Part shown: piece after piece, positions 8,721 to 47,998 of the stretch | How positions within the stretch are numbered: the stretch's first letter is position 1 | How the letters are laid out: the number at the start of each line of letters is the position of its first letter | Assembly: GCA_977017645.1 (NCBI GenBank) | Contig: OZ360245.1 | Coordinates: 20,088,001 to 20,152,000 of the forward strand | Origin: Torpedo marmorata | Taxonomy: Eukaryota | Length of the DNA: 64,000 nt | Reading direction: 5' to 3' | Notes under the pieces: generated by a model | Seen by the model: the letters and a program-made list of their open reading frames with translations, nothing else | The model's database searches: none | What the model was told of the DNA's origin: nothing | Position numbers and translations under genes: made by a program

Positions 8721-10305
8721 CAGGTGCCTAACCTGAAATTCTGAAAGCCGAACATTTTTTCAGTATATTTTCAGGTGTTTAGCTTAGTTTGAGCCAGTTA
8801 ATGTTTGAAGTTTTAATGTGTTTTACTTCGACCATAAAATTACTAGCGTATTTTATTTTTATCTTTATCTCGCTTCATTTATCACCCCCCCCTGCGAAAC
8901 CCCCGTCCAGCGCCGCCGCGAAACCCCCGTCCAGCGCCGCCGCGAAACCCCCGTCCAGCGCCGCCGCGAAACCCCCGTCCAGCGCCGCCGCGAAACCCCC
9001 GTCCAGCGCCGCCGCGAAACCCCCGTCCAGCGCCGCCGCGAAACCCCCGTCCAGCGCCGCCGCGAAACCCCCGTCCAGCGCCGCCGCGAAACCCCCGTCC
9101 AGCGCCGCCGCGAAACCCCCGTCCAGCGCCGCCGCGAAACCCCCGTCCAGCGCCGCCGCGAAACCCCCGTCCAGCGCCGCCGCGAAACCCCCGTCCAGCG
9201 CCGCCGCGAAACCCCCGTCCAGCGCCGCCGCGAAACCCCCGTCCAGCGCCGCCGCGAAACCCCCGTCCAGCGCCGCCGCGAAACCCCCGTCCAGCGCCGC
9301 CGCGAAACCCCCGTCCAGCGCCGCCGCGAAACCCCCGTCCAGCGCCGCCGCGAAACCCCCGTCCAGCGCCGCCGCGAAACCCCCGTCCAGCGCCGCCGCG
9401 AAACCCCCGTCCAGCGCCGCCGCGAAACCCCCGTCCAGCGCCGCCGCGAAACCCCCGTCCAGCGCCGCCGCGAAACCCCCGTCCAGCGCCGCCGCGAAAC
9501 CCCCGTCCAGCGCCGCCGCGAAACCCCCGTCCAGCGCCGCCGCGAAACCCCCGTCCAGCGCCGCCGCGAAACCCCCGTCCAGCGCCGCCGCGAAACCCCC
9601 GTCCAGCGCCGCCGCCCAGAAACCCCCGTCCAGCGCCGCCGCCCAGAAACCCCCCCCGTCCAGCGCCGCCGCCCAGAAACCCCCCCTGTCCAGCGCCGCC
9701 GCCCAGAAACCCCCCCCGTCCAGCGCCGCCGCCCAGAAACCCCCCCGTCCAGCGCCGCCGCCCAGAAACCCCCCCGTCCAGCGCCGCCGCCCAGAAACCC
9801 CCGTCCAGCGCCGCCGCCCAGAAACCCCCGTCCAGCGCCGCCGCCCAGAAACCCCCCCGTCCAGCGCCGCCGCCCAGAAACCCCCCCCGTCCAGCGCCGC
9901 CGCCCAGAAACCCCCCCGTCCAGCGCCGCCGCCCAGAAACCCCCCCCGTCCAGCGCCGCCGCCCAGAAACCCCCCCCCCGTCCAGCGCCGCCGCCCAGAA
10001 ACCCCCCCCGTCCAGCGCCGCCGCCCAGAAACCCCCCCCGTCCAGCGCCGCCGCCCAGAAACCCCCCCCGTCCAGCGCCGCCGCCCAGAAACCCCCCCCG
10101 TCCAGCGCCGCCGCCCAGAAACCCCCCCCGTCCAGCGCCGCCGCCCAGAAACCCTTCTAGTTGGAGTGTGTCTTTGTTTTGCGCGAATCTGAAGCAACAC
10201 AATTATTTAAAAGTACCGCCGTTAAAATAATTCTATAATCTGAAAAAATCGGAATTCCGAAAAGTGTCCGGTTCCAAGGTTTTCAGATAAAAGGTTAGGC
10301 ATCTG
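8721..10305. mobile_element. Non-autonomous Tc1/mariner-pogo (Tigger-like) element carrying a GC-rich minisatellite
   Basis: TA flanks at 8719-8720 and 10306-10307; termini CAGGTGCCTAACC and GGTTAGGCATCTG; right ~74 bp nearly identical, inverted, to the left end of 61435-62337. Confidence 0.88.
8896..10154. repeat. Minisatellite: 30 perfect copies of GAAACCCCCGTCCAGCGCCGCCGC (24 bp), then ~18 variant units of 27-32 bp
   Basis: Directly visible; variant units add CCA and have C-runs of 5-10. Confidence 0.97.
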
Positions 10306-33900: not shown

Positions 33901-34219
33901 AACGGCTGCTCCTGTCCAGGTTTCTATCATTGGACTGCATCCAATTTTTGTATTTACCGTATATTTTGGTGTATAAGTCGACCCACAGATAAGTCGACCC
34001 CCCTTTTTCAGCCTCATTTTAATGGTTTTATTGTATATCGGGCGTATAAGTCGACCCCCTAAAAATTGCGATGCCTGAGATGTTGGGCATTGACCGGCGT
34101 ATAAGTCAACCCCCAAAAATTGTGATGCCTGAGATGCTGGGCGTTGACCGGCGTATAAGACGACCCACAACGAACGCGATGATTGAGCTGCTGGGCATTG
34201 GCTGGAGGTGATTGTTATC

Positions 34220-35548
34220 ATGGAGGGTCCATTGAAACGACAAAAGTATGAGGCGAGTTTTAAATTAAAAGTGATAGAAATGGCCAAGAAAACCAACAAC
34301 TGTGCTGCTGCAAGAAAATTTGATACATATGAGAAGTTAGTAAGAGATTGGAGGAAGAAAGAAGGGACTTTAAGAAAAATACCAAAAAGGCAATGTTCGA
34401 TGAGAAGAAGAATCACTCGTTGGCCAGAGTTGGAAAATCATGTTGCAACATGGGTACATGAACAGAGGCAACATTGCTACATAGTCACCCGAAATAAAAT
34501 AAGAACATTTGCACTGAAGTGGGCAAAGTCGCACCCAGAACTCAGTAATGATTTTGAAGCTACAGTCGGCTGGTGCAACCGTTTCATGAACAGGAAAAAT
34601 CTGGTATTACGACAAAAAACAAAAATTGCTCAGAAACTACCAAAAGATTTTGATCATAAAGTTGTAAGTTTTCACCAGTTTATTTTACGCAACCGGCAGA
34701 AACACAAGTTTGCATTGGCAAATATTGGAAACATGGACGAAACCCCATGAATTTTTACATGATAGGCAATAGAACAGTGGAATGGAAAGGTGTGAAAACT
34801 GTGCAAATCAGGAGTACAGGCCATGAAAGGACCAGGTTTACTGTGGTGTTATCGTACATGGCCGACGGGACAAAGTTAAGACCCATGGTAATCTTCAAAC
34901 GCAAATTGAAACCTAAAATAAAATTCCCTGCGGGTATTTTTGTACATTTTCATGAAAAAGGATGGGTGGATGGATGAAAATGGTGTAAAACTATGGATAG
35001 ACAATGTGTGGAACAGGCGGCCAGGCGGTTTACACAAGGAACGGAGTTTTCTGGTCTGGGATATGTTTCGTAGCCACTTAACTGAGAACACTAAAAGTAG
35101 ATTAGCACAACATAATACTTACATGGCGGTTATCCCGGGTGGTTTGACGTCTATATTGCAACCTCTCGATGTCTGCTTGAACAAGCCATTCAAAGACCAT
35201 GTGCGTGAAGAGTGGAATACATGGATGTCGAGTGCAGAAAAATCATTTACAAAAGGCGGGGCAATGCGTACTGCATCGCTTGATATGCTGTGTGACTTCA
35301 TGCTCAAGGCATGGGACAAAGTGAAAGTAGAGACTGTAATAAAATCGTTTAAAAAGTGCGGTATCTCTTGTGCAATTGATGGTACGGAAGATGATTTATT
35401 GTGGGACACTGACGTAGAAGCTGAAGCTGCCTCATTAGATACATACTGGGATCCATATGATGACTGTTTAAACAGTGAGACCCCGGATGTGCTTGCCGAG
35501 ATCTTTGCCTCAGACGATGATAGCGAAAGTGATTTTGAAGGGTTCTAA
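34220..35548 (+). pseudogene. DD35D transposase with two frameshifts (about -1 at ~34746, +4 at ~34968)
   Basis: Brinker-like DBD (YEASFKLKVIEMAKKTNNCAAARKF), CENP-B HTH, triad NMDET / VWD / QPLD with exactly 35 residues between the 2nd and 3rd Asp. Confidence 0.9.
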
Positions 35549-35609
35549 ATGTGTTGTTGTTTTCAATAAAAATTTCAATGAAAATTTGTTGCAGTCGGGT
35601 TTTTTTTTT

Positions 35610-35835
35610 GGTTTTTCAAGGGTCGACTTATACGCTGAATCAGGTTTTCAAGGGTCGACTTATACGCCGAATCGGGTTTTCAAGGGTCGACTTATACGCC
35701 GAATCGGGTTTTCAAGGGTCAACTTATACGCCGAATTGGGTTTTCAGAGGTTGACTTATACACCGATTCAGGTTATCAAGGGTTGCCTTATACACGGAAT
35801 TGGGTTTTCAAGGGTCGACTTATACGCCGAATCGG
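35610..35835. repeat. Subterminal ~32-bp tandem array (~7 units) containing the TIR core CGACTTATACGCCG
   Basis: GGGTTTTCAAGGGTCGACTTATACGCCGAATC repeated; ~4 units in copy 1 (2637-2760). Confidence 0.9.
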
Positions 35836-36127
35836 CGTGGAGCGGTTTTTGAGCTGAATTTAAGGTCTCAAAAGTATATCTGGCGTATAAGTCGACCCCC
35901 ATTTTTTGAGAGATTTTTGAGGGTTTCAAGACTCGACTTATACGCCGAAATATATGGTATTTTCTTGACTTGGTTTGAACCTGTTTTCTGTCACTTTGAT
36001 AACTAGAATAGTTTCAGCTCTTCCTATTACATGTGGGAATCAAGACATGTTCATTTTAAGAATCGCATTGTGAAACTAGGGAGTGTTGTAAATCTGAAAT
36101 GATGCATTTAGTTGTATATGCATTAGA

Positions 36128-39185: not shown

Positions 39186-39807
39186 ATAATTTATGTTTAT
39201 TTTGAAGGAAGACGAGCTTTCCACATTATTCAAGATTCTGTTTATTACTATGAACACAAAAATGTATTTCCTTTTTTTTTTTTAAAAAGTAGAGGTGTTC
39301 ATTGTGACCATTATTTCCTGAGCAAGATCTGGCCCAGGTTTTTGTTTTAGAATTTCAGTTGAATTAAGCATCCTTTGGTGCAGGTGTGAAATGATTTATG
39401 TTAATGCTTAATAGCACTATTTTGATCTATGAAATGTCCAACATCTTTTCACAGCAGGATATGATTGTAGTTTCCAGAAAATGTCAACATTCATGCTGTA
39501 CTTCTGCTAGTTCCTATGGCATCAATTCTGTTGGCCTGTGTTAGTGATTTCACAGGAAAATCAAATTCCTGATAACATTTATTTATGTTGTGAATTTGAA
39601 TAAATATTAACATTGATGGGTCTAAAATGCCCCTGAGTTGTTTGCTCTATTCCTCTGACCTACCATCATATCCTCTGTCATTTTTTTCTTTCAAAAACTG
39701 TTTGTAATGTTTTTAATCTTTGATTTAGTGCAAAATGATTTTTTGCACAATTTCCAGATAACGTTGCTCCAAGTAACTCTTTAATGCTGTTAGTAATGAA
39801 TACCACT

Positions 39808-40370
39808 TATTATGGTGACTTCGATCCAACAATAGTCACCTGGAGGCTAAGTGAGATACTTGTCTTTGACGCGTTTTAATTAATTTACTAACAAAGTCCA
39901 ATATGTTCAAAATCTTTATTTACACACGTGACTTGCAGTAATCTTCAATGACTTCAATATAAACAGTTCTTGAAAACGATGTATGATGAGTTTCTTTAAA
40001 TAATTCTTTAAACAATTCCAAAACGATGGATAAGTTATAAAACGATATAAAACGCTGTAAAACGGTCAATAAAGATATGGCGATCTCACTCACCCTCCTA
40101 CATTCATTCCTTTCCTTTTCTCTCCGATTCGCGCATGCTCTGTCGCTCCTATAACACTGCGCACCCTCCATAGCGCATACTACATTTCCCAAACTACCCC
40201 GCGCACAATGACGTCACTCCACACTGCGCATGCGCCCGTTGGCACTCCAGCGCATGCTCAGAGCACAGAACGGGCCGAGGACAGCCCAACGGACAACGCG
40301 AGCGCTCCACAAGCCGACGAGACATCGGAGCGCCGCAGCAAGGTAAGTTAATGAGCCTACGGCTCTTACA
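39808..40370 (-). repeat. BEL 3' LTR (563 bp)
   Basis: Direct repeat of 47224-47799; by eye about 9-10 substitutions plus 3-bp and 10-bp indels. Confidence 0.95.
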
Positions 40371-40567
40371 CCGGCCCCTAATTATTATAATTAGACGCAA
40401 TGTCTTGAATAATAATTACACTATAAATTATAATAACAATAACCATAACATTCAAACAATACAAATCTTCTTTCTTCCTTCTTCATAAATCTAGAGTTTA
40501 CCATAATTCTGATTCAACAAAAGTCTGTAACCTGTGAAATATACAACAACAAGTCAGTTTATATTTA

Positions 40568-41980
40568 TTAAAATTCCTCTGTCTCCAACAAAAGGCAGAC
40601 CTTGTTAATAGGTCTGTTTAGAAAACCAGTCTTAGTTTTAATTCGCACTTGACGCACAAGTCCCCTTTTGTCTTGAAAAGTCTCAATAATTTTTCCAAGT
40701 AACCATGAATTTCTCGGAGCTGAATCATCCATTATAATCACAATGTCTCCTGATGTAAAATTGCGTCTGAGGTTAAACCATTTTTGCCGTTCTTGCAGCT
40801 GAAGAAGATATTCTTTAACCCATCTTTTCCAAAATAAATCTGACATATACTGTATCTGTCTCCATCTCCGACGAGCGTATATGTCTTCCTTCTTAAATTG
40901 CCCTGGTGGCATCGATAGATTAGTTTTAAGAAGCAAGAGATGGTTCGGGGTAAGTGCCTCAAGATCATTTGGATCTGTAGAAGCCTTAGTGATTGGACGA
41001 CTGTTTAAAATAGCTTCAACTTCACATAAAACTGTGGAAAGACCCTCCTCGTTCAGACTTTGCACTTTTAAAGTGGAATTAAGTACCCTTCGTATTGATC
41101 TAATTAATCTTTCCCATACACCGCCATAATGTGAACCAGTTGGTGGGTGGAATTTCCAATCAATTCCTTTCTGAAGTAATGTACTATGTATTTGATCTTG
41201 ATTCCAACCTCCGATTGCCTCTTTTAACTCGCGTTGAGCTCCTACAAAATTAGTACCATTGTCAGATCGTATTTCTTTCACTTGACCACGTCTGGATATA
41301 AAACGCCGAAGAGCATTGATAAAAGAGTCTGTGTCAAGAGATAAAGCCACTTCAATATGGATTGCTCTTATAGCTAAACATGTGAAAATAACACCATAAC
41401 GTTTTACAACACTTCTTCCACGCTTAACATCAAAAGGTCCAAAATAATCGACTCCAACATATGTGAAAGGAGGTTCATCGGGAGAGACTCTGTCCAGAGG
41501 CAAATCTGTCATCTGCTGTTGTCCAGGAGTGAGATTTAATCGCCGACAAGCAACACATTTTGATACAATTTTTCTAATTAACACAGTGGCACCAATAATC
41601 CAATATTTTTGTCGTAGTTCGGATAACATATGATTGCGACCACCATGACCCACCTTTTCATGAATATGCCGAAGAATTAAATCAGAGATATAAAAATCCT
41701 TGGCCAGTATAACGGGATGTTTCATCTCTTCTGGTATTGCAGCTCTGCTAAGTCGCCCACCAACTCTTAATACACCATTCTCCAAAATGGGATTAAGTTT
41801 ACGAAGAATACTTGTTCTTTTAACATTCATTCCCCCTTTCAAACTCGAAATTTCGTCTGCAAATCTTTTCTTCTGACAAAAGCGAATTATCTCCATTTCA
41901 GCATCAATCAATTCTTCAACTGTAAGACGTTTTCCTTTCTGTGGCTCAGTAACATTGTTTGTTCGTTTGTTACGATTCAA
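40568..41980 (-). CDS. BEL pol integrase region, uninterrupted 470-codon reading frame within a disrupted pol
   Basis: HHCC (HEKVGH...CVAC), VGVDYFGPF, SDNGTNF, GVWERLI. Confidence 0.85.
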   Translation of the reverse strand: MNRNKRTNNVTEPQKGKRLTVEELIDAEMEIIRFCQKKRFADEISSLKGGMNVKRTSILRKLNPILENGVLRVGGRLSRAAIPEEMKHPVILAKDFYISDLILRHIHEKVGHGGRNHMLSELRQKYWIIGATVLIRKIVSKCVACRRLNLTPGQQQMTDLPLDRVSPDEPPFTYVGVDYFGPFDVKRGRSVVKRYGVIFTCLAIRAIHIEVALSLDTDSFINALRRFISRRGQVKEIRSDNGTNFVGAQRELKEAIGGWNQDQIHSTLLQKGIDWKFHPPTGSHYGGVWERLIRSIRRVLNSTLKVQSLNEEGLSTVLCEVEAILNSRPITKASTDPNDLEALTPNHLLLLKTNLSMPPGQFKKEDIYARRRWRQIQYMSDLFWKRWVKEYLLQLQERQKWFNLRRNFTSGDIVIIMDDSAPRNSWLLGKIIETFQDKRGLVRQVRIKTKTGFLNRPINKVCLLLETEEF

Positions 41981-42076
41981 AAACCATTTTTAAAATCTGA
42001 GCAACCACGCTATTGCTCTTTTTAAACTATTGCAAGATGAAAATCTATGTATTAAATAAGTGATACAATCCCTTTG

Positions 42077-45000
42077 TTAAGATATTATCTGCAATGCATT
42101 TGCAGTTTTAATCTCATTTATAGATTGATCATAGGGTTCTTCTTCTTTGATTTCACAATCATCTAATAAAATTTCCTTTAATTTATCAGGATTTTGAGAT
42201 CGTAAAAGAAACTTAGGCCCAGATATCCACATTTCATTCTTTAGAAAAGATTTGATTTTTAAACCTCGAGAAGCCAAATCAGCAGGATTATCAACTGCTT
42301 TAATATATTTCCATTGTTTTGGACATGAGACTTTATCAATTTCAACAATTCTGTTAGCCACAAAGTTCGAAATCTTGTGGTCTTATTGTTGAGGTATTTA
42401 AGTACAGATGTGCTATCTGTCCAAAAAATAGAGTCTGCTAGATTCATCTGCAGCTCTTTTCTTAGTACTGTGTCCATTCTACTTGCCATGGCAGCAGCCG
42501 TTAACTCCATTCGAGGTATAGTAACTGGTTTTAATGGAGCCACGCTAGCCTTTCCCATTACGAATCCACAATGTATATGAATTTTATTACTATACAGTAA
42601 CAGATAACTAACAGTTCCATAACCTTCCTCACATGCATCAGCAAAATGATGAAGTTGAGCAAATGTCACCTTTCCAAAGTTGATGGGTTTGAAACATCTG
42701 TCAATCTTGAAGCTTTCCAACAAATGAAGATCCTTATTCCAACATATCCAGTTCTGTACAATGGAATCTGGTATCTTATCATCCCAACCTATCTTTTTTC
42801 TACACAGATCTTGCAAGATCTTCTTGGCAGTTAAGACGACTGGTGCCAATATTCCTAAAGGATCATAAATTGAACTGATCGTTGATAGTATCCCTCTTCT
42901 TGTGAGAGGTCTGTCCTTCAAAATGATTTTGAACTTGAAAACATCAGACTGAATACACCATTGTATACCCAACACTCTCTCAACAGGAAGATTGTCATGA
43001 TCTAAATCTAAATTCTTCATTTCTTTTGCTCTTTCTGCTTCAGGTATGACAGCCAACACACGACGACTGTTACTTATCCATTTTGTAAGTAGAAATCCAC
43101 CCTTTAAACAGATTTTTCGTAATTCATAATAAAGAAATATTGCATTTTCTTCAGAAGTTGTAGAAGTAAGACAGTCATCTCCATAAAAATTGTTCAAAAT
43201 GGTGCTTACAGCTTGAGAGCTAAACTCTGTCACATTATCCTCAGCACACTTCCTAAGGGCATAGTTCGCACAACTTGGAGGAGATGATGTTGCTCAAATA
43301 AATGTACTGTCATTCTATATTCTTTCATATTTTGTTTGTAGTTTCCATCAGGCCACCATAGGAACCGTAATAAATCACGATCTTCATTTGGTACTTTCAC
43401 TTGATGAAACATTGCTTCAATGTCAGCGGTGATAACAAAAGGTTCTTTACGGAATCTTATCAAAACTCCTATTAATGTACTAGTCAAATCTGGTCCTTGT
43501 AACAACTGAGAATTTAGTGACACTCCTCTATAAGTCGCTCCACAGTCAAACACAACACGAAGTTTTTTTCTTTTGTGGATGTAAAACCCCATGATGTGGT
43601 AGATACCATTTTTTACCATCATTACGTCCCAATACATTATCTGGTATCTTCTCTGCGTAACCTTTTGATATCATATTAGACATAAAATTGCTATAATCCG
43701 AATGAAAAGAAGAATCTCTATTAAATCTTTTTCTTAAATTCAGTGTACGTTGAGCTACGTTTCTATTGTCAGGCATGTATACTTCTTTTATCTTTACAGG
43801 TAATCCAATACAATAATGTCCATCAACTAACTCGGCAGATTCTGAGACAAAATTCAAAAACTGCTTATCTTCTTTTGAATATTCTTGTTCATCTCTGAGG
43901 CACTCAGGAAAGTCACTTTTGAATTGCTGTTCCCATAGCTCACCAAGTTTCATAACTGAAATTCTATTAACATTTATTGCTAACTGTTCCTGAGCTTTAT
44001 CACCTGTATCTCCTAATGGTCCATTGATTGTCCAACCAAGCATGGTTTTAACAGCATAAGATCCATTCCTTTTACCCTGTATTACTTCTTGTGGTACCAA
44101 AACCTTTGGCACATCTGAACCAATCAGCATTTCTATTTCAGAATTAATTTCAGGTAAATAAACCTTCCACAGATAAGCTAAATGATGGATATCCCTTTGA
44201 AGAGGAATATTTCCTTCATTCACAGGCATAGTCTTTGTTGTGTATTTCGGGTGTAAGCTTACAATAACCGTCTTCATTCATCCTTTATTACTAAACTAAA
44301 ATGGTATTCAGCGTTACCCCTTATATAGTACGTATGACGTCATTACGTCATACGTTATACGTTACATATACAACAGTCTTCTGAGTATATACACTTGGAA
44401 GATCACAAAATTTTTTGTCATCCAATCCAGCAACCTCTAAGCCTGAAACAATGTTAGTTTCAACAACCTTTTCTTGTCCCATGGTTTTTAACATAATTCT
44501 TGATCTTCTTCCTTGAATATTAAGTTTATTCATTAGTCCTTCCGTGCAAAAAGATGCAGTGCTGCCTGGGTCTAAAAATGCATATGTTTTTACTATTACA
44601 TCCCCTTTCTTGGCCTTGACTTGTACAGGCACTATTGAAAGTTTGCAGTTATCCACACCGGCCCCAGTAAGACCACTTGTCTGAACCGAGGTTATAACAT
44701 TATTTTCTGTTGTTTCCTTTGTTTCTGTTTGCTCCTTTTCCAATTCCTTGTTTCTGTTATGGATATGCAAAATTCTAGGATGTCTCAAATTGCATATGTT
44801 ACAATTAATTCGCTTCTCGCAGTTTTTACTGATGTGTCCTTTACACAGACAGCTAAAACATATTCCATTTTCCTTTAAGAAAGCGATCTTTTCCTTATGT
44901 TCCTTCTTTTCCAATCGTAAACACATTTCCAAAGTATGTCCACCTTTACAAAACAAACAACTCTTTTTATCAGGCAAACTTTCCTTTTCCTTATTTACTT

Positions 45001-46837
45001 TGTCCTTTTCTTTATTTATAACTTATACATTAGTAGCAAAAGTACTCCTTTTCAATTTCGGACTAGATTGTGTGTTAGACTTCCTTACATCTTTGCCCAT
45101 TGTATTATCTCTGGCATTTCCATATAGTGGATCTGTTTCAACGTACACCCGTCGTTCAAAAAAATTTACCAAATCCTTTAAGGTAATTTTTCGACCGTAA
45201 TCTACTTGTAAATCACAAGCCAAATCTCTCCATCTATCCCATAACTTGTAAGGTAATTTTTCTAAGATGATTCGCATATTACTATGCACTTCAAGCTCAC
45301 GAATATTATCAATTTCTTCCATAGCATTACAACATCCTTTTAAAAACAAAGTATATTCTTGCAGAGCCTTTACATCATTTTGTTTTATTGATGTCCATTT
45401 AAGAGCTTTATCCATATAAGCTAAAGCAATTCGATGCTTGTTGCTAAAATATTGTTCCAATAAAGCCTTAGCTTTGTCTAATCCTCTTTTTGAAGACATT
45501 TGTTTACAACTCTTTACCAATTCTTTTGGATGTCCCTTTGTGAACATTTCCAAATAATAAAGACATTCATCACGATCTTGACATTTATCTTCAATATTGC
45601 GTTTGAAAGATCTCATAAATGATTGATATTGAAGTGGATCACCATCAAAAGTTTGTATCTCTTTCTTGGGTAAAGAAGAGAGAGACTGTAACTGAAACAA
45701 TAATGCAGCAGTTTCATTTTGTCTTTCCTTGGATGACAATACATTGCTCTGTTCACCGTCTCTTGTTGCATGCAATGTATCTGGAAACCTCACTGGTGTA
45801 GTTTCTTCCATATTTCTGATGCTTGACTCATATAACAAAGAAGCTGCTTCGTTCGACCGAACCCAAGCCGTAGCTTTGCTTTCAGATGTTACCATTGGTA
45901 CATGTGACTCGATACCAATATGCTCTTGAAAGGTTTGTCCTTGTATATGTACGTTTTGTATCCTTGGTTCTAAAATATCTATCCTTTTGGTTGGTTTCTT
46001 TTCCTGTGACACCTTTTTTAAATATGACCTTTTATTATCAGACAAGTTATATAATTTACCTTCAGCACCAGATACCATTGAGCCTTTTATTGCTTTCTTT
46101 TCTGCCTTGGCAATAGCAATGTTTGCTTCCAGCTCCTGCTGTTCTTTTCTCTGCCTTAGTTGCTCCTTCTCTTGTCTTAGCTGCTCCATTAGCTGCTTCT
46201 CATTTTGTCTTAGTTGCTCCTTTAGCTGCTCCTCCTCTTGTTCTAAAATAAATTTATCCTTAAGCGTTTTTTGTTGTGCAAGAAGAGCGGCCAATTTAAC
46301 ATCAACCTTTGTACGTGACGATGCAGAACTTGAAGTACGAGAAACTCTGGAGCTTGAACCAGAACTTCTTTTGCTTCTCCTGCTTACAGCATTTGAGACA
46401 CTGTCACTTGCTTATATTTCGTCCTGCAGTTCATATGCTGTCTTCATACTTACCTCTTTATCCAATTCGAATTGTATATCCTTTGCATCTTCAACCACTT
46501 TAATTTCTTCATCATTTGTTAACACAATTTCAGCCATTTCCCTTTTATCTTCTTGTTCATCTAATGAAGCTGCCTCTTCATCCTTTGCCAGCTTCAATCT
46601 TTCGATAAGAGCCCTTTTATTTCCACTTATGTCCTTTTTCAGTCGCTTCAATTCTTCTTTAATATCCGAAACCTTCACGTCTTCAATACGTTGGTCCTCA
46701 ACAGCAACATCAGCGGTTGCTGCTTCAGCTGCTGATACATCAGTAGCTGCTGTATCACAGGCTGCTGCGGCCATTTTACTCGTCTTGTTCCTCTTTCCTT
46801 CAAGCGTACACAACACCAGCCAAACAACAGTCCCCAA
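42077..46837 (-). pseudogene. BEL gag-protease-RT-RNase H with frameshifts, stops and a solo-LTR insertion
   Basis: Consecutive minus-strand ORF pieces 46837-46412, 46294-45023, 44977-44348, 44277-43546, 43637-43230, 43233-42259, 42361-42077. Confidence 0.9.
44236..44375 (-). mobile_element. 140-bp solo LTR of a different LTR retrotransposon
   Basis: TGTTGT...ACAACA termini, 5-bp TSD GTCTT (44231-44235 and 44376-44380); minus strand has TGACGTCA, TATATAA and AATAAA; removal restores BEL YTQKT-MPV. Confidence 0.9.
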
Positions 46838-47223
46838 TGGACCAGCGGCAGCAATTCCAATCTGTGTTCTTACTTGCTAAAGATACACAGAAGGAGTCCA
46901 CAGACTTATGCCAACCACTTCAAATGACTGTAATGTACTGCAATCCACAAACGAGTTTCAACCACAACATCCGTCAATAATATCACTAATTTTCCAAAAA
47001 TAGTTTCTCCAACGTATTTATAGGACACTTTACTATAAGATTTGAAGCTTTAAATCCCTCTCTGGCTGTTATTCATGGCAGATGGATGTGGATTACAAAC
47101 TGCCCCCTACTCGAGGCATCTCCAAGATGGCCACCATTTTATATCAGTCCAAAGCACAGAGAGATTATTCTATCTTCTTTCCTTCAATTTTCTGTTCCAA
47201 ACATCCAGCCACTTTATTGACTA

Positions 47224-47799
47224 TATTATGGTGACTTCGATCCAACAATAGTCACCTGGAGGCTAAGTGAGATACTTGTCTTTGACGCGTTTTAATTAAT
47301 TTACTAACAAAGTCCAATATGTTGAAAATCTTTATTTACACACGTGACTTGCAGTAATCTTCAATGACTTCAATATAAACAGTTCTTGAAAACGATGTAT
47401 GATGAGTTTCTTTAAATGATTCTTTAAACAATTCCAAAACGATGTATAAGAAGTTATAAAACGATATAAAACGCTGTAAAACGCTGTAAAACGGTCAATA
47501 AAGATATGGAGATCTCACTCACCCTCCTACATTCATTCCTTTCCTTTTCTCTCCGATTCGCGCATGCTCCGTCGCTCCTATAATACTGCGCACCCTCCAT
47601 AGCGCATACTACATTTCCCAAACTACCCCGCGCACAATGACGTCACTCCACACTGCGCATGCGCCCGTTGGCACTCCAGCGCATGCGCAGAGCATAGAAC
47701 GGGCCGAGGACGGCCCAACGGACAACGCGAGCGCTCCACAAGCCGACGAGACATCGGAGCGCCGCAGCAAGGTAAGTTAATGAGCCTACGGCTCTTACA
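47224..47799 (-). repeat. BEL 5' LTR (576 bp)
   Basis: Sense strand starts TGTAAG and ends ATAATA; CpG-rich first half with TGACGTCA and GCGCATGCGC motifs, AT-rich second half with AATAAA. Confidence 0.95.
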
Positions 47800-47998
47800 C
47801 CACTGAATTCTGCAAGATCACTTGGCACAGTGCCTAAGTAACAACCTGAGCTGAAATTTGGTACCAGGTCCTTAATAGATTCTATGATTTTCTCTCGAAT
47901 GTAAATCACATTTACTTCATGGCCTATAATTGCCCATTTTCTCTTTTTCAAAAGTCACGTGGTTGCTAGTATTTGTTCCAATTCAGTCTCTGGTCAAC

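Follow-up and report, generated by a model that had tools for sequence, protein, structure and literature searches.

Predicted self-priming of reverse transcription from an internal, often intron-split leader segment in a BEL/Pao retrotransposon lineage

Introduction

How does a BEL/Pao retrotransposon start minus-strand DNA synthesis when the position directly inside its 5' LTR carries no tRNA-type site? The question is raised by an element of the marbled electric ray Torpedo marmorata (contig OZ360245.1 of assembly GCA_977017645.1), located in a stretch of 64,000 nucleotides that was analysed as a whole and is here called the window. The family Belpaoviridae is described by the ICTV as tRNA-primed, with an 18-nt primer-binding site (PBS) for tRNA-Arg or tRNA-Gly (PMC8742986). 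Self-priming has been described, as far as the accessible parts of the cited papers go, for Tf1, Tf2, Tj1 and the Tf1/sushi and Tcn1 groups (PMC7175516, PMC4600332, PMC5341516, PMC3601003), the Tf1 primer being the first 11 bases, with an RNase H cut between bases 11 and 12 (accessible part of PMC7175516). For the plant TAR Copia lineage (Houba, Osr-1) it was predicted from LTR–PBS complementarity (accessible part of PMC6317226). An earlier sequence-only reading of the window had proposed tRNA-independent priming in the manner of Tf1, and we here evaluate that proposal with regards to the element, its genomic copies and its relatives.

Results

Structure and classification of the element

The minus strand of the window carries, at 39808-47799, a BEL/Pao LTR element with a 5-bp target duplication at both ends. 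Its parts were as follows.

47224..47799 (-): 5' LTR, 576 bp, TG...TA
39808..40370 (-): 3' LTR, 563 bp
47800..47804 (+): target-site duplication CCACT, twin at 39803-39807
47222..47223 (-): spacer TA, 2 nt, from LTR end to primer-binding position
40371..40379 (-): polypurine tract AGGGGCCGG
47331..47336 (-): AATAAA poly(A) signal
47230..47256 (-): U5 hairpin with 7-bp stem, arms 47250-47256 and 47230-47236
47579..47585 (-): TATA-like TATTATA, 82 nt upstream of the paired bases; the 3' LTR differs by one base
45023..46876 (-): gag pieces, interrupted, SAP domain and DUF1759
42259..45022 (-): triple Cys-His box, protease, reverse transcriptase and Pao peptidase/RNase H, in several frames, broken
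40568..41989 (-): integrase with DUF5641

Because the CCACT duplication bounds the LTRs, their ends are TG...TA, with the usual CA absent, and the spacer is TA, so that the 2-nt gap between LTR and primer site given in the sequence-only reading was borne out. TA instead of CA termini were seen in both families studied in the source genome (window 47224-47225, and L153), and in both of these TA-ending families the terminal LTR bases differ from copy to copy. The two LTRs of the window element differ by 9 substitutions over 563 aligned bases and by 2 indels, and the coding region is split over at least seven frames, with Pfam matches to SAP, DUF1759, Pao peptidase, integrase and DUF5641. A SAP nucleic-acid-binding domain (PF02037; 46412-46876, minus strand) opens gag.

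The pol order was that of BEL/Pao (PF05380, PF03564, PF18701 and the integrase families), with reverse transcriptase also matched in full-length relatives; the domains being BEL/Pao ones, the element does not fall into the Ty3/gypsy chromovirus phylogeny. The frame 44348-45022 encodes the triple Cys-His box of Gag, as defined in the accessible part of PMC554778, and its third zinc finger reads CX2CX3HX4H, versus the CX4CX6HHX3C given there for the Suzu superfamily, to which the element thus does not belong. All six families reached through shared integrase motifs are labelled Sinbad in the accessible part of PMC3118150, among them those of fish NC-184, NC-364, NC-597 and NC-1526, a label obtained by motif look-up that would hold at superfamily level and does not separate Sinbad proper, Sparrow and Surcouf. 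The window element is a BEL/Pao element, probably of Sinbad type, young yet broken.

The primer-binding position matches the interior of its own LTR

Directly behind the spacer, three short segments bear on priming.

47212..47221 (-): primer-binding position, 10 nt, without a tRNA-type TGG start
47494..47503 (-): predicted self-primer segment, LTR 297-306, twin at 40065-40074
47487..47493 (-): CGTTTTA, the bases that immediately follow the primer, where fold-back copies restart; its complement is at 47288-47294

The plus strand at 47212-47221 reads CTTTATTGAC (sense, GTCAATAAAG), and LTR 297-306 is the exact complement of this 10-nt position. This confirmed the central observation of the sequence-only reading, namely that the site lacks a TGG tRNA start and is complementary to the LTR interior. 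Within the 64-kb window, the complement of CTTTATTGAC occurs at 47494-47503 and 40065-40074 only. Dinucleotide shuffling of the LTR gave this exact 10-mer in 13 of 20000 shuffles, and any 10-mer taken from offsets 0-5 in 75 of 20000. The AATAAA signal, earlier placed about 170 nt past the 10-mer, is present, with a measured distance of 158 nt. The arms of the U5 hairpin were likewise found, while the stability of that region proved not unusual (z -1.5). That the 10-mer marks the U3/R boundary had been no observation in itself, and it was not confirmed.

With regards to tRNA, the 18-nt site of the Belpaoviridae description, which is a trait listed for the family and no phylogenetic criterion of it, is absent from the window element. 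A comparison of the site with host tRNAs, suggested earlier, covered 33 predicted tRNAs of 7 amino-acid types, which shared at most 7 of the 10 bases.

Covariation and intron-split complements among relatives

A profile scan of metagenome contigs gave 80 BEL loci, with animal hosts. From these we assembled a set of 16 elements, comprising 14 metagenome loci, the window element and L153, in which the LTR end was fixed from two LTR copies (four ends were shifted by 1-3 nt to reach CA). An exact complement of 10-15 nt between primer site and own LTR was found in 14/16 elements, with differing letters, and in 12/13 families when near copies were counted once, so that the co-variation expected among related BEL families by the sequence-only reading was indeed seen. 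Shuffled post-LTR bases matched each of these 14 exact cases in only 0-2 of 300 trials, and none of the 14 starts with TGG. As to the remaining two, L131 had a single mismatch, located at the donor, and in L095, whose 3' LTR copy looks interrupted and whose LTR end is poorly fixed, no complement was found. In a quick integrase tree, L095 falls within a group of self-priming relatives.

The complement was contiguous, at 10-15 nt, in 3 of the 16 elements. In 11 of the 14 exact cases it exists only after removal of a 67-139-nt GT-AG interval inside the LTR, running from GTAAG to a pyrimidine-rich AG and leaving 4-8 paired bases in exon 1 and 4-11 in exon 2. A complement present only across such an interval, itself a predicted intron, points to pairing on processed, spliced RNA. 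The intron rule was derived from eight LTRs already seen, before the wider search, and subsequently held in L085, L123, L133, L106, L120, L121 and L129.

A further search, anchored on the learnt GT/AC ends, covered 52 of the 80 loci (L095 and L127 being in both sets); the other 28 had been tested before or had no usable upstream DNA. At least 10 nt were reached in 22 of the 52 loci versus 1.3 expected, a count that includes several near copies and two false calls, L100 and L116. The latter were dropped as contiguous cases, since the integrase tree placed both beside families with other sites, and a blind screen in which the LTR ends had not been fixed was left unused, as 10-14-nt matches arise there by chance. 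A set of 26 loci held 23 distinct first-10 sequences, each with its own LTR match, so that no single tRNA fits. The integrase tree (75 rows, 17 loci omitted, no outgroup) grouped the contiguous cases with fish proteins and placed the intron-split cases in other branches, with a few contiguous ones among them.

Copies in the source genome

The family is very abundant, with 5527 exact LTR-end/primer-site junctions genome-wide, and the integrase tail domain gave about 24000 candidates in the 6.2-Gb genome. We compared the window element with 29 other close copies, these being the best matches to a query spanning both sites and therefore a biased sample, in which the primer site was exact in 28/29 copies and the LTR self-primer segment in 27/29. 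Among the 30 copies, LTR 271-296 is nearly invariant, at 0.0013 variants per column and copy versus 0.027 in the LTR, a conservation some 20-fold above that of the remaining LTR. The bases just behind the primer site were of six types among 28 copies.

47204..47211 (-): hypervariable bases behind the PBS, containing the second-helix partner described below, 0.31 variants per column and copy

A second family of the same genome, whose LTR is unrelated and whose pol is about 75% identical at the nucleotide level, carries its own, different 15-nt LTR/primer-site pair, and one of its copies (L150) shows a matching one-base length change in both halves of the pair. Integrase relatives at the protein level were 59-81% identical, the named ones being mostly from bony fishes; relatives sought in viral contigs were not found.

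Rearranged copies as possible traces of replication

At 120 genomic places the primer site is extended by LTR complement (26 and 94 for two LTR variants), and the second family has 11 such places. Examining 116 of them, we found 36 with a short extension followed by internal sequence, 26 fold-backs, 35 in which antisense U5 runs on, and 19 other rearrangements. Short extensions could be scored in 34 cases, and in 30 of these the added bases were those of the LTR variant carried by the same copy (Fisher p 6e-5, with copies that are not independent); apparently, the primer copied by the plus strand extended past the 10-mer.

The fold-backs, not all of which are mutually independent, have the order U3, primer, antisense U5 and then sense R, restarting in the repeats just behind the primer, at the first unit in 13 of the 26, tied in 9 and at a later unit in 4. 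Three junctions of the second family, which involve two distinct partner sites, resume with the base that immediately follows the paired segment. Such restarts would fit strong-stop DNA ending at a cut in the template; the junctions also sit on microhomologies, and template switching alone could yield them. Four pairs of rearranged LTR ends (L237/L238, L245/L246, L297/L298 and L306/L307) lie 5.2-5.7 kb apart with an identical junction within each pair. Both LTRs of one element thus carry the fold-back insertion, and such variants appear to have kept transposing. The end points of the extensions were scattered (26 copies), 13 crossing all of U3 and some reaching the polypurine tract, so that no start can be read from them, and they show 3' LTR sequence to be usable as template. 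A start at LTR 247, taken from two extended copies by comparison with the window LTR, was discarded, since the stops differ when each copy is compared with its own LTRs.

Predicted leader helices and the probable position of the RNA start

Three further segments are predicted to pair around the primer helix.

47507..47510 (-): leader side of the predicted short second helix, whose other strand, 47204-47207, lies behind the PBS across a bulge
47512..47527 (-): leader segment with predicted U5 pairing over 15 of 16 bases
47258..47273 (-): predicted U5 partner of that leader segment

For the second helix, when 12 upstream bases were set against 10 bases behind the site, the own partner was better than cross-family partners (45/100000 permutations), and the helix is usually preceded by a short A/C-rich bulge. 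For the pairing of bases -34 to -5 with U5, own pairing also beat cross-family pairing (85/50000, versus 43578/50000 for a control window), with the own partner ranking best in 7/26 loci, and the window helix has a computed 16 bp and -21.8 kcal/mol. The 3' LTR copy of the leader could be the partner in these pairings. Pairing of the first bases behind the primer with U5 was not conserved across the 26 loci, nor was an unusually stable U5 hairpin found among them.

TATA-like motifs were present in 11/26 loci and in none of the other 15/26; they lay 49-64 nt upstream of the paired bases in 6/26 loci, and at 20-45 nt upstream in 0/26. A transcription start sought in two read runs in contig form was not seen. 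Taken together, the covarying upstream helices, the TATA spacing and the introns would place the RNA start upstream of the 10-mer. The start at 47503-47507 put forward in the sequence-only reading is therefore not supported, as the covarying pairings reach some 30 nt further upstream and no TATA-like motif is suitably spaced for it. Nor do the data favour a primer made of the initial ~10 nt of the RNA, since only 4-8 paired bases precede the donor in the intron-split relatives. The Tf1-like view of the 10-mer as the first bases of the RNA is, judging from these comparisons, probably wrong.

In nested folding with a start at LTR 245-270, leader–U5 pairing was preferred and the primer helix cost 16 kcal/mol, whereas with a start at LTR 290 or later the primer helix cost nothing. 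Thirty nucleotides of leader abolished the primer helix in 5/12 relatives and left it in 7/12. Since a long leader displaces the primer helix in nested folds, the helices would have to alternate or to form a pseudoknot. A donor-like GTGAGT lies at 47517-47522 (minus strand), 14 nt upstream of the primer and in the most conserved part of the LTR; it could be a remnant or counterpart of the LTR intron of the relatives.

Discussion

A self-priming model

That the window element primes minus-strand DNA with its own RNA, in one form or another, is very likely on the strength of the covariation, the intron-split primers and the rearranged copies, all of which strongly support the tRNA-independent priming proposed earlier. 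As to the form, we judge it likely that synthesis is primed by a short 5' leader, which folds back on the primer site and is cleaved after the conserved AC. Transcription would start some 25-50 nt upstream of the 10-mer, so that the primer would correspond to the 3' end of this leader and not to the place where the RNA begins. Three helices would keep the leader on the template, namely that of 10 bp, the bulged one behind the PBS and the longer one with U5, which would form a pseudoknot or a switch between two folds. A cut right behind the 10-base segment, possibly by the RNase H of the element in analogy with Tf1, would yield the primer end. Strong-stop DNA would then stop at the cut and jump to the 3' R, and the plus strand would copy the primer and so rebuild the PBS, with the bulge as its usual stop. 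The LTR would be rebuilt from the 3' copy and the leader consumed as primer, for which reason retrotransposition would spare an intron located upstream of the cut. Such survival would explain the intron-split relatives.

The broader scenario that we favour, with somewhat more reserve, is that Sinbad/Sailor BEL/Pao elements of fishes and other aquatic animals swapped tRNA for a primer from their own leader, independently of Tf1. In many families the host spliceosome would build the primer by joining two LTR exons, so that processed RNA alone would be licensed for copying and an intron could persist in a reverse-transcribed genome; the window element would be the intron-less form.

Alternative explanations

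Could the 10-mer instead be the whole primer, with the RNA starting at it or a few bases away, as in Tf1 (accessible part of PMC7175516)? An initiator-like pyrimidine-purine step just before the 10-mer would suit such a start, and for starts at LTR 290-297 the primer helix is free of cost in nested folds. Intron-split relatives would however require first exons of 4-8 nt, the covarying helices draw on bases up to ~30 nt upstream, extended PBS copies hold the complement of upstream bases, and the TATA spacing is unsuitable in all 26 loci, making this quite unlikely. Unlikely is also a primer derived from the 3' LTR copy, on the same or a co-packaged RNA, that is cut behind the 10-mer and primes within an RNA circle or on a partner. 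The DNA sequence would be the same whichever LTR copy pairs, and many rearranged copies link the PBS to the whole U3 and some to the polypurine tract and integrase. Mis-transfer of a plus strand after copying of a short primer can nonetheless produce such long joins too. The segment, moreover, lies 158 nt upstream of AATAAA and is thus not a natural 3' end, a primer of thousands of bases gives the plus strand no simple stop, and in intron-split families the 3' end would have to be spliced when acting as primer and unspliced when acting as template.

Priming by a tRNA, a tRNA half or another host small RNA, with the LTR–PBS pairing serving as a regulatory switch in packaging, dimerisation or translation, would agree with the ICTV description (PMC8742986), with the competing folds of the leader and with the half-tRNA priming of Copia elements in the accessible part of PMC6317226, and our host comparison spans 7 tRNA types only. 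Nevertheless, the 26 loci have 23 site sequences that each fit their own LTR, TGG starts are lacking in the 14 exact cases, and the extended copies were templated by LTR and not by tRNA, so that we hold this explanation to be very unlikely. Chance complementarity in an AT-rich LTR has a negligible probability. Blind screens without fixed LTR ends do give 10-14-nt matches, and the calls in L100 and L116 did turn out false; against this stand the rarity of the match in shuffles of the window LTR (75/20000) and the same layout in 12/13 families, and the covariation across families refutes it.

Relation to known systems

Among self-primed elements, Tf1 and Tf2 of Schizosaccharomyces pombe, Tj1, Tf1/sushi and Tcn1 likewise have no tRNA site, and Tf1-type elements share with the window element, known from DNA alone, a 10-15-nt LTR segment complementary to the PBS position and a primer-yielding cut expected behind it, insofar as the accessible parts of the papers cited above describe them. 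Unlike these Ty3/gypsy chromoviruses, the window element is BEL/Pao, with no chromodomain by Pfam; its paired segment probably lies inside a longer leader, is flanked by extra helices, is split by a predicted intron in many relatives, and has a primer end that is nearly always AC against GT. The TAR lineage of Ty1/copia is likewise predicted to be self-priming within a superfamily otherwise primed by tRNA; its superfamily and hosts are unrelated, and an intron-split primer goes unmentioned in the accessible part of PMC6317226. With Belpaoviridae, and within these the Sinbad superfamily (Sailor lineage), the window element shares the Gag triple Cys-His box, protease, reverse transcriptase, Pao peptidase/RNase H, integrase with DUF5641, LTRs, polypurine tract and 5-bp duplication; unlike in the family description, it has no 18-nt tRNA PBS and its LTR ends in TA.

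The main texts of the BEL/Pao surveys PMC554778, PMC3118150, PMC6238403 and PMC8556966, in their accessible parts, contain no statement on the primer site, and those of PMC8220671 and PMC13524379 treat it only in general or for other groups. Our literature search, with subscription papers, Repbase and most supplements lying outside it, found no BEL/Pao self-priming or spliced primer. What is new within that scope is the probable self-priming of a lineage whose superfamily is described as tRNA-primed, by a primer that would be internal and often intron-split. If true, the tRNA-primed description of Belpaoviridae needs correction for one widespread animal lineage, and an independent origin of self-priming is added, in a form unseen in Tf1, where the primer is internal and, in many families, assembled by splicing. 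It would also explain why PBS finders overlook such elements, and it predicts escape from control by tRNA supply and tRNA fragments. For each family the cut site, splice junctions and RNA-DNA joints are predicted exactly, and the rearranged copies offer a route to replication intermediates from genome sequence alone.

Other observations in the window

Near the 5' end of both LTRs, at 47768-47777 (+) and 40339-40348 (+), lies an antisense consensus-like splice donor, CAAG|GTAAGT. The adjoining CpG-rich stretch carries the motifs TGCGCATGCGC and TGACGTCA, which we take to be NRF1-like and CRE-like, and antisense transcripts of the LTR may be spliced into host DNA. Elsewhere, the window holds a tandem array of nearly perfect 24-nt units and, after it, one of 30-nt units (8745-10188), and two repeat copies with internal 32-/54-nt units (924-2732 and 33980-35867), 96-97% alike and 33 kb apart.
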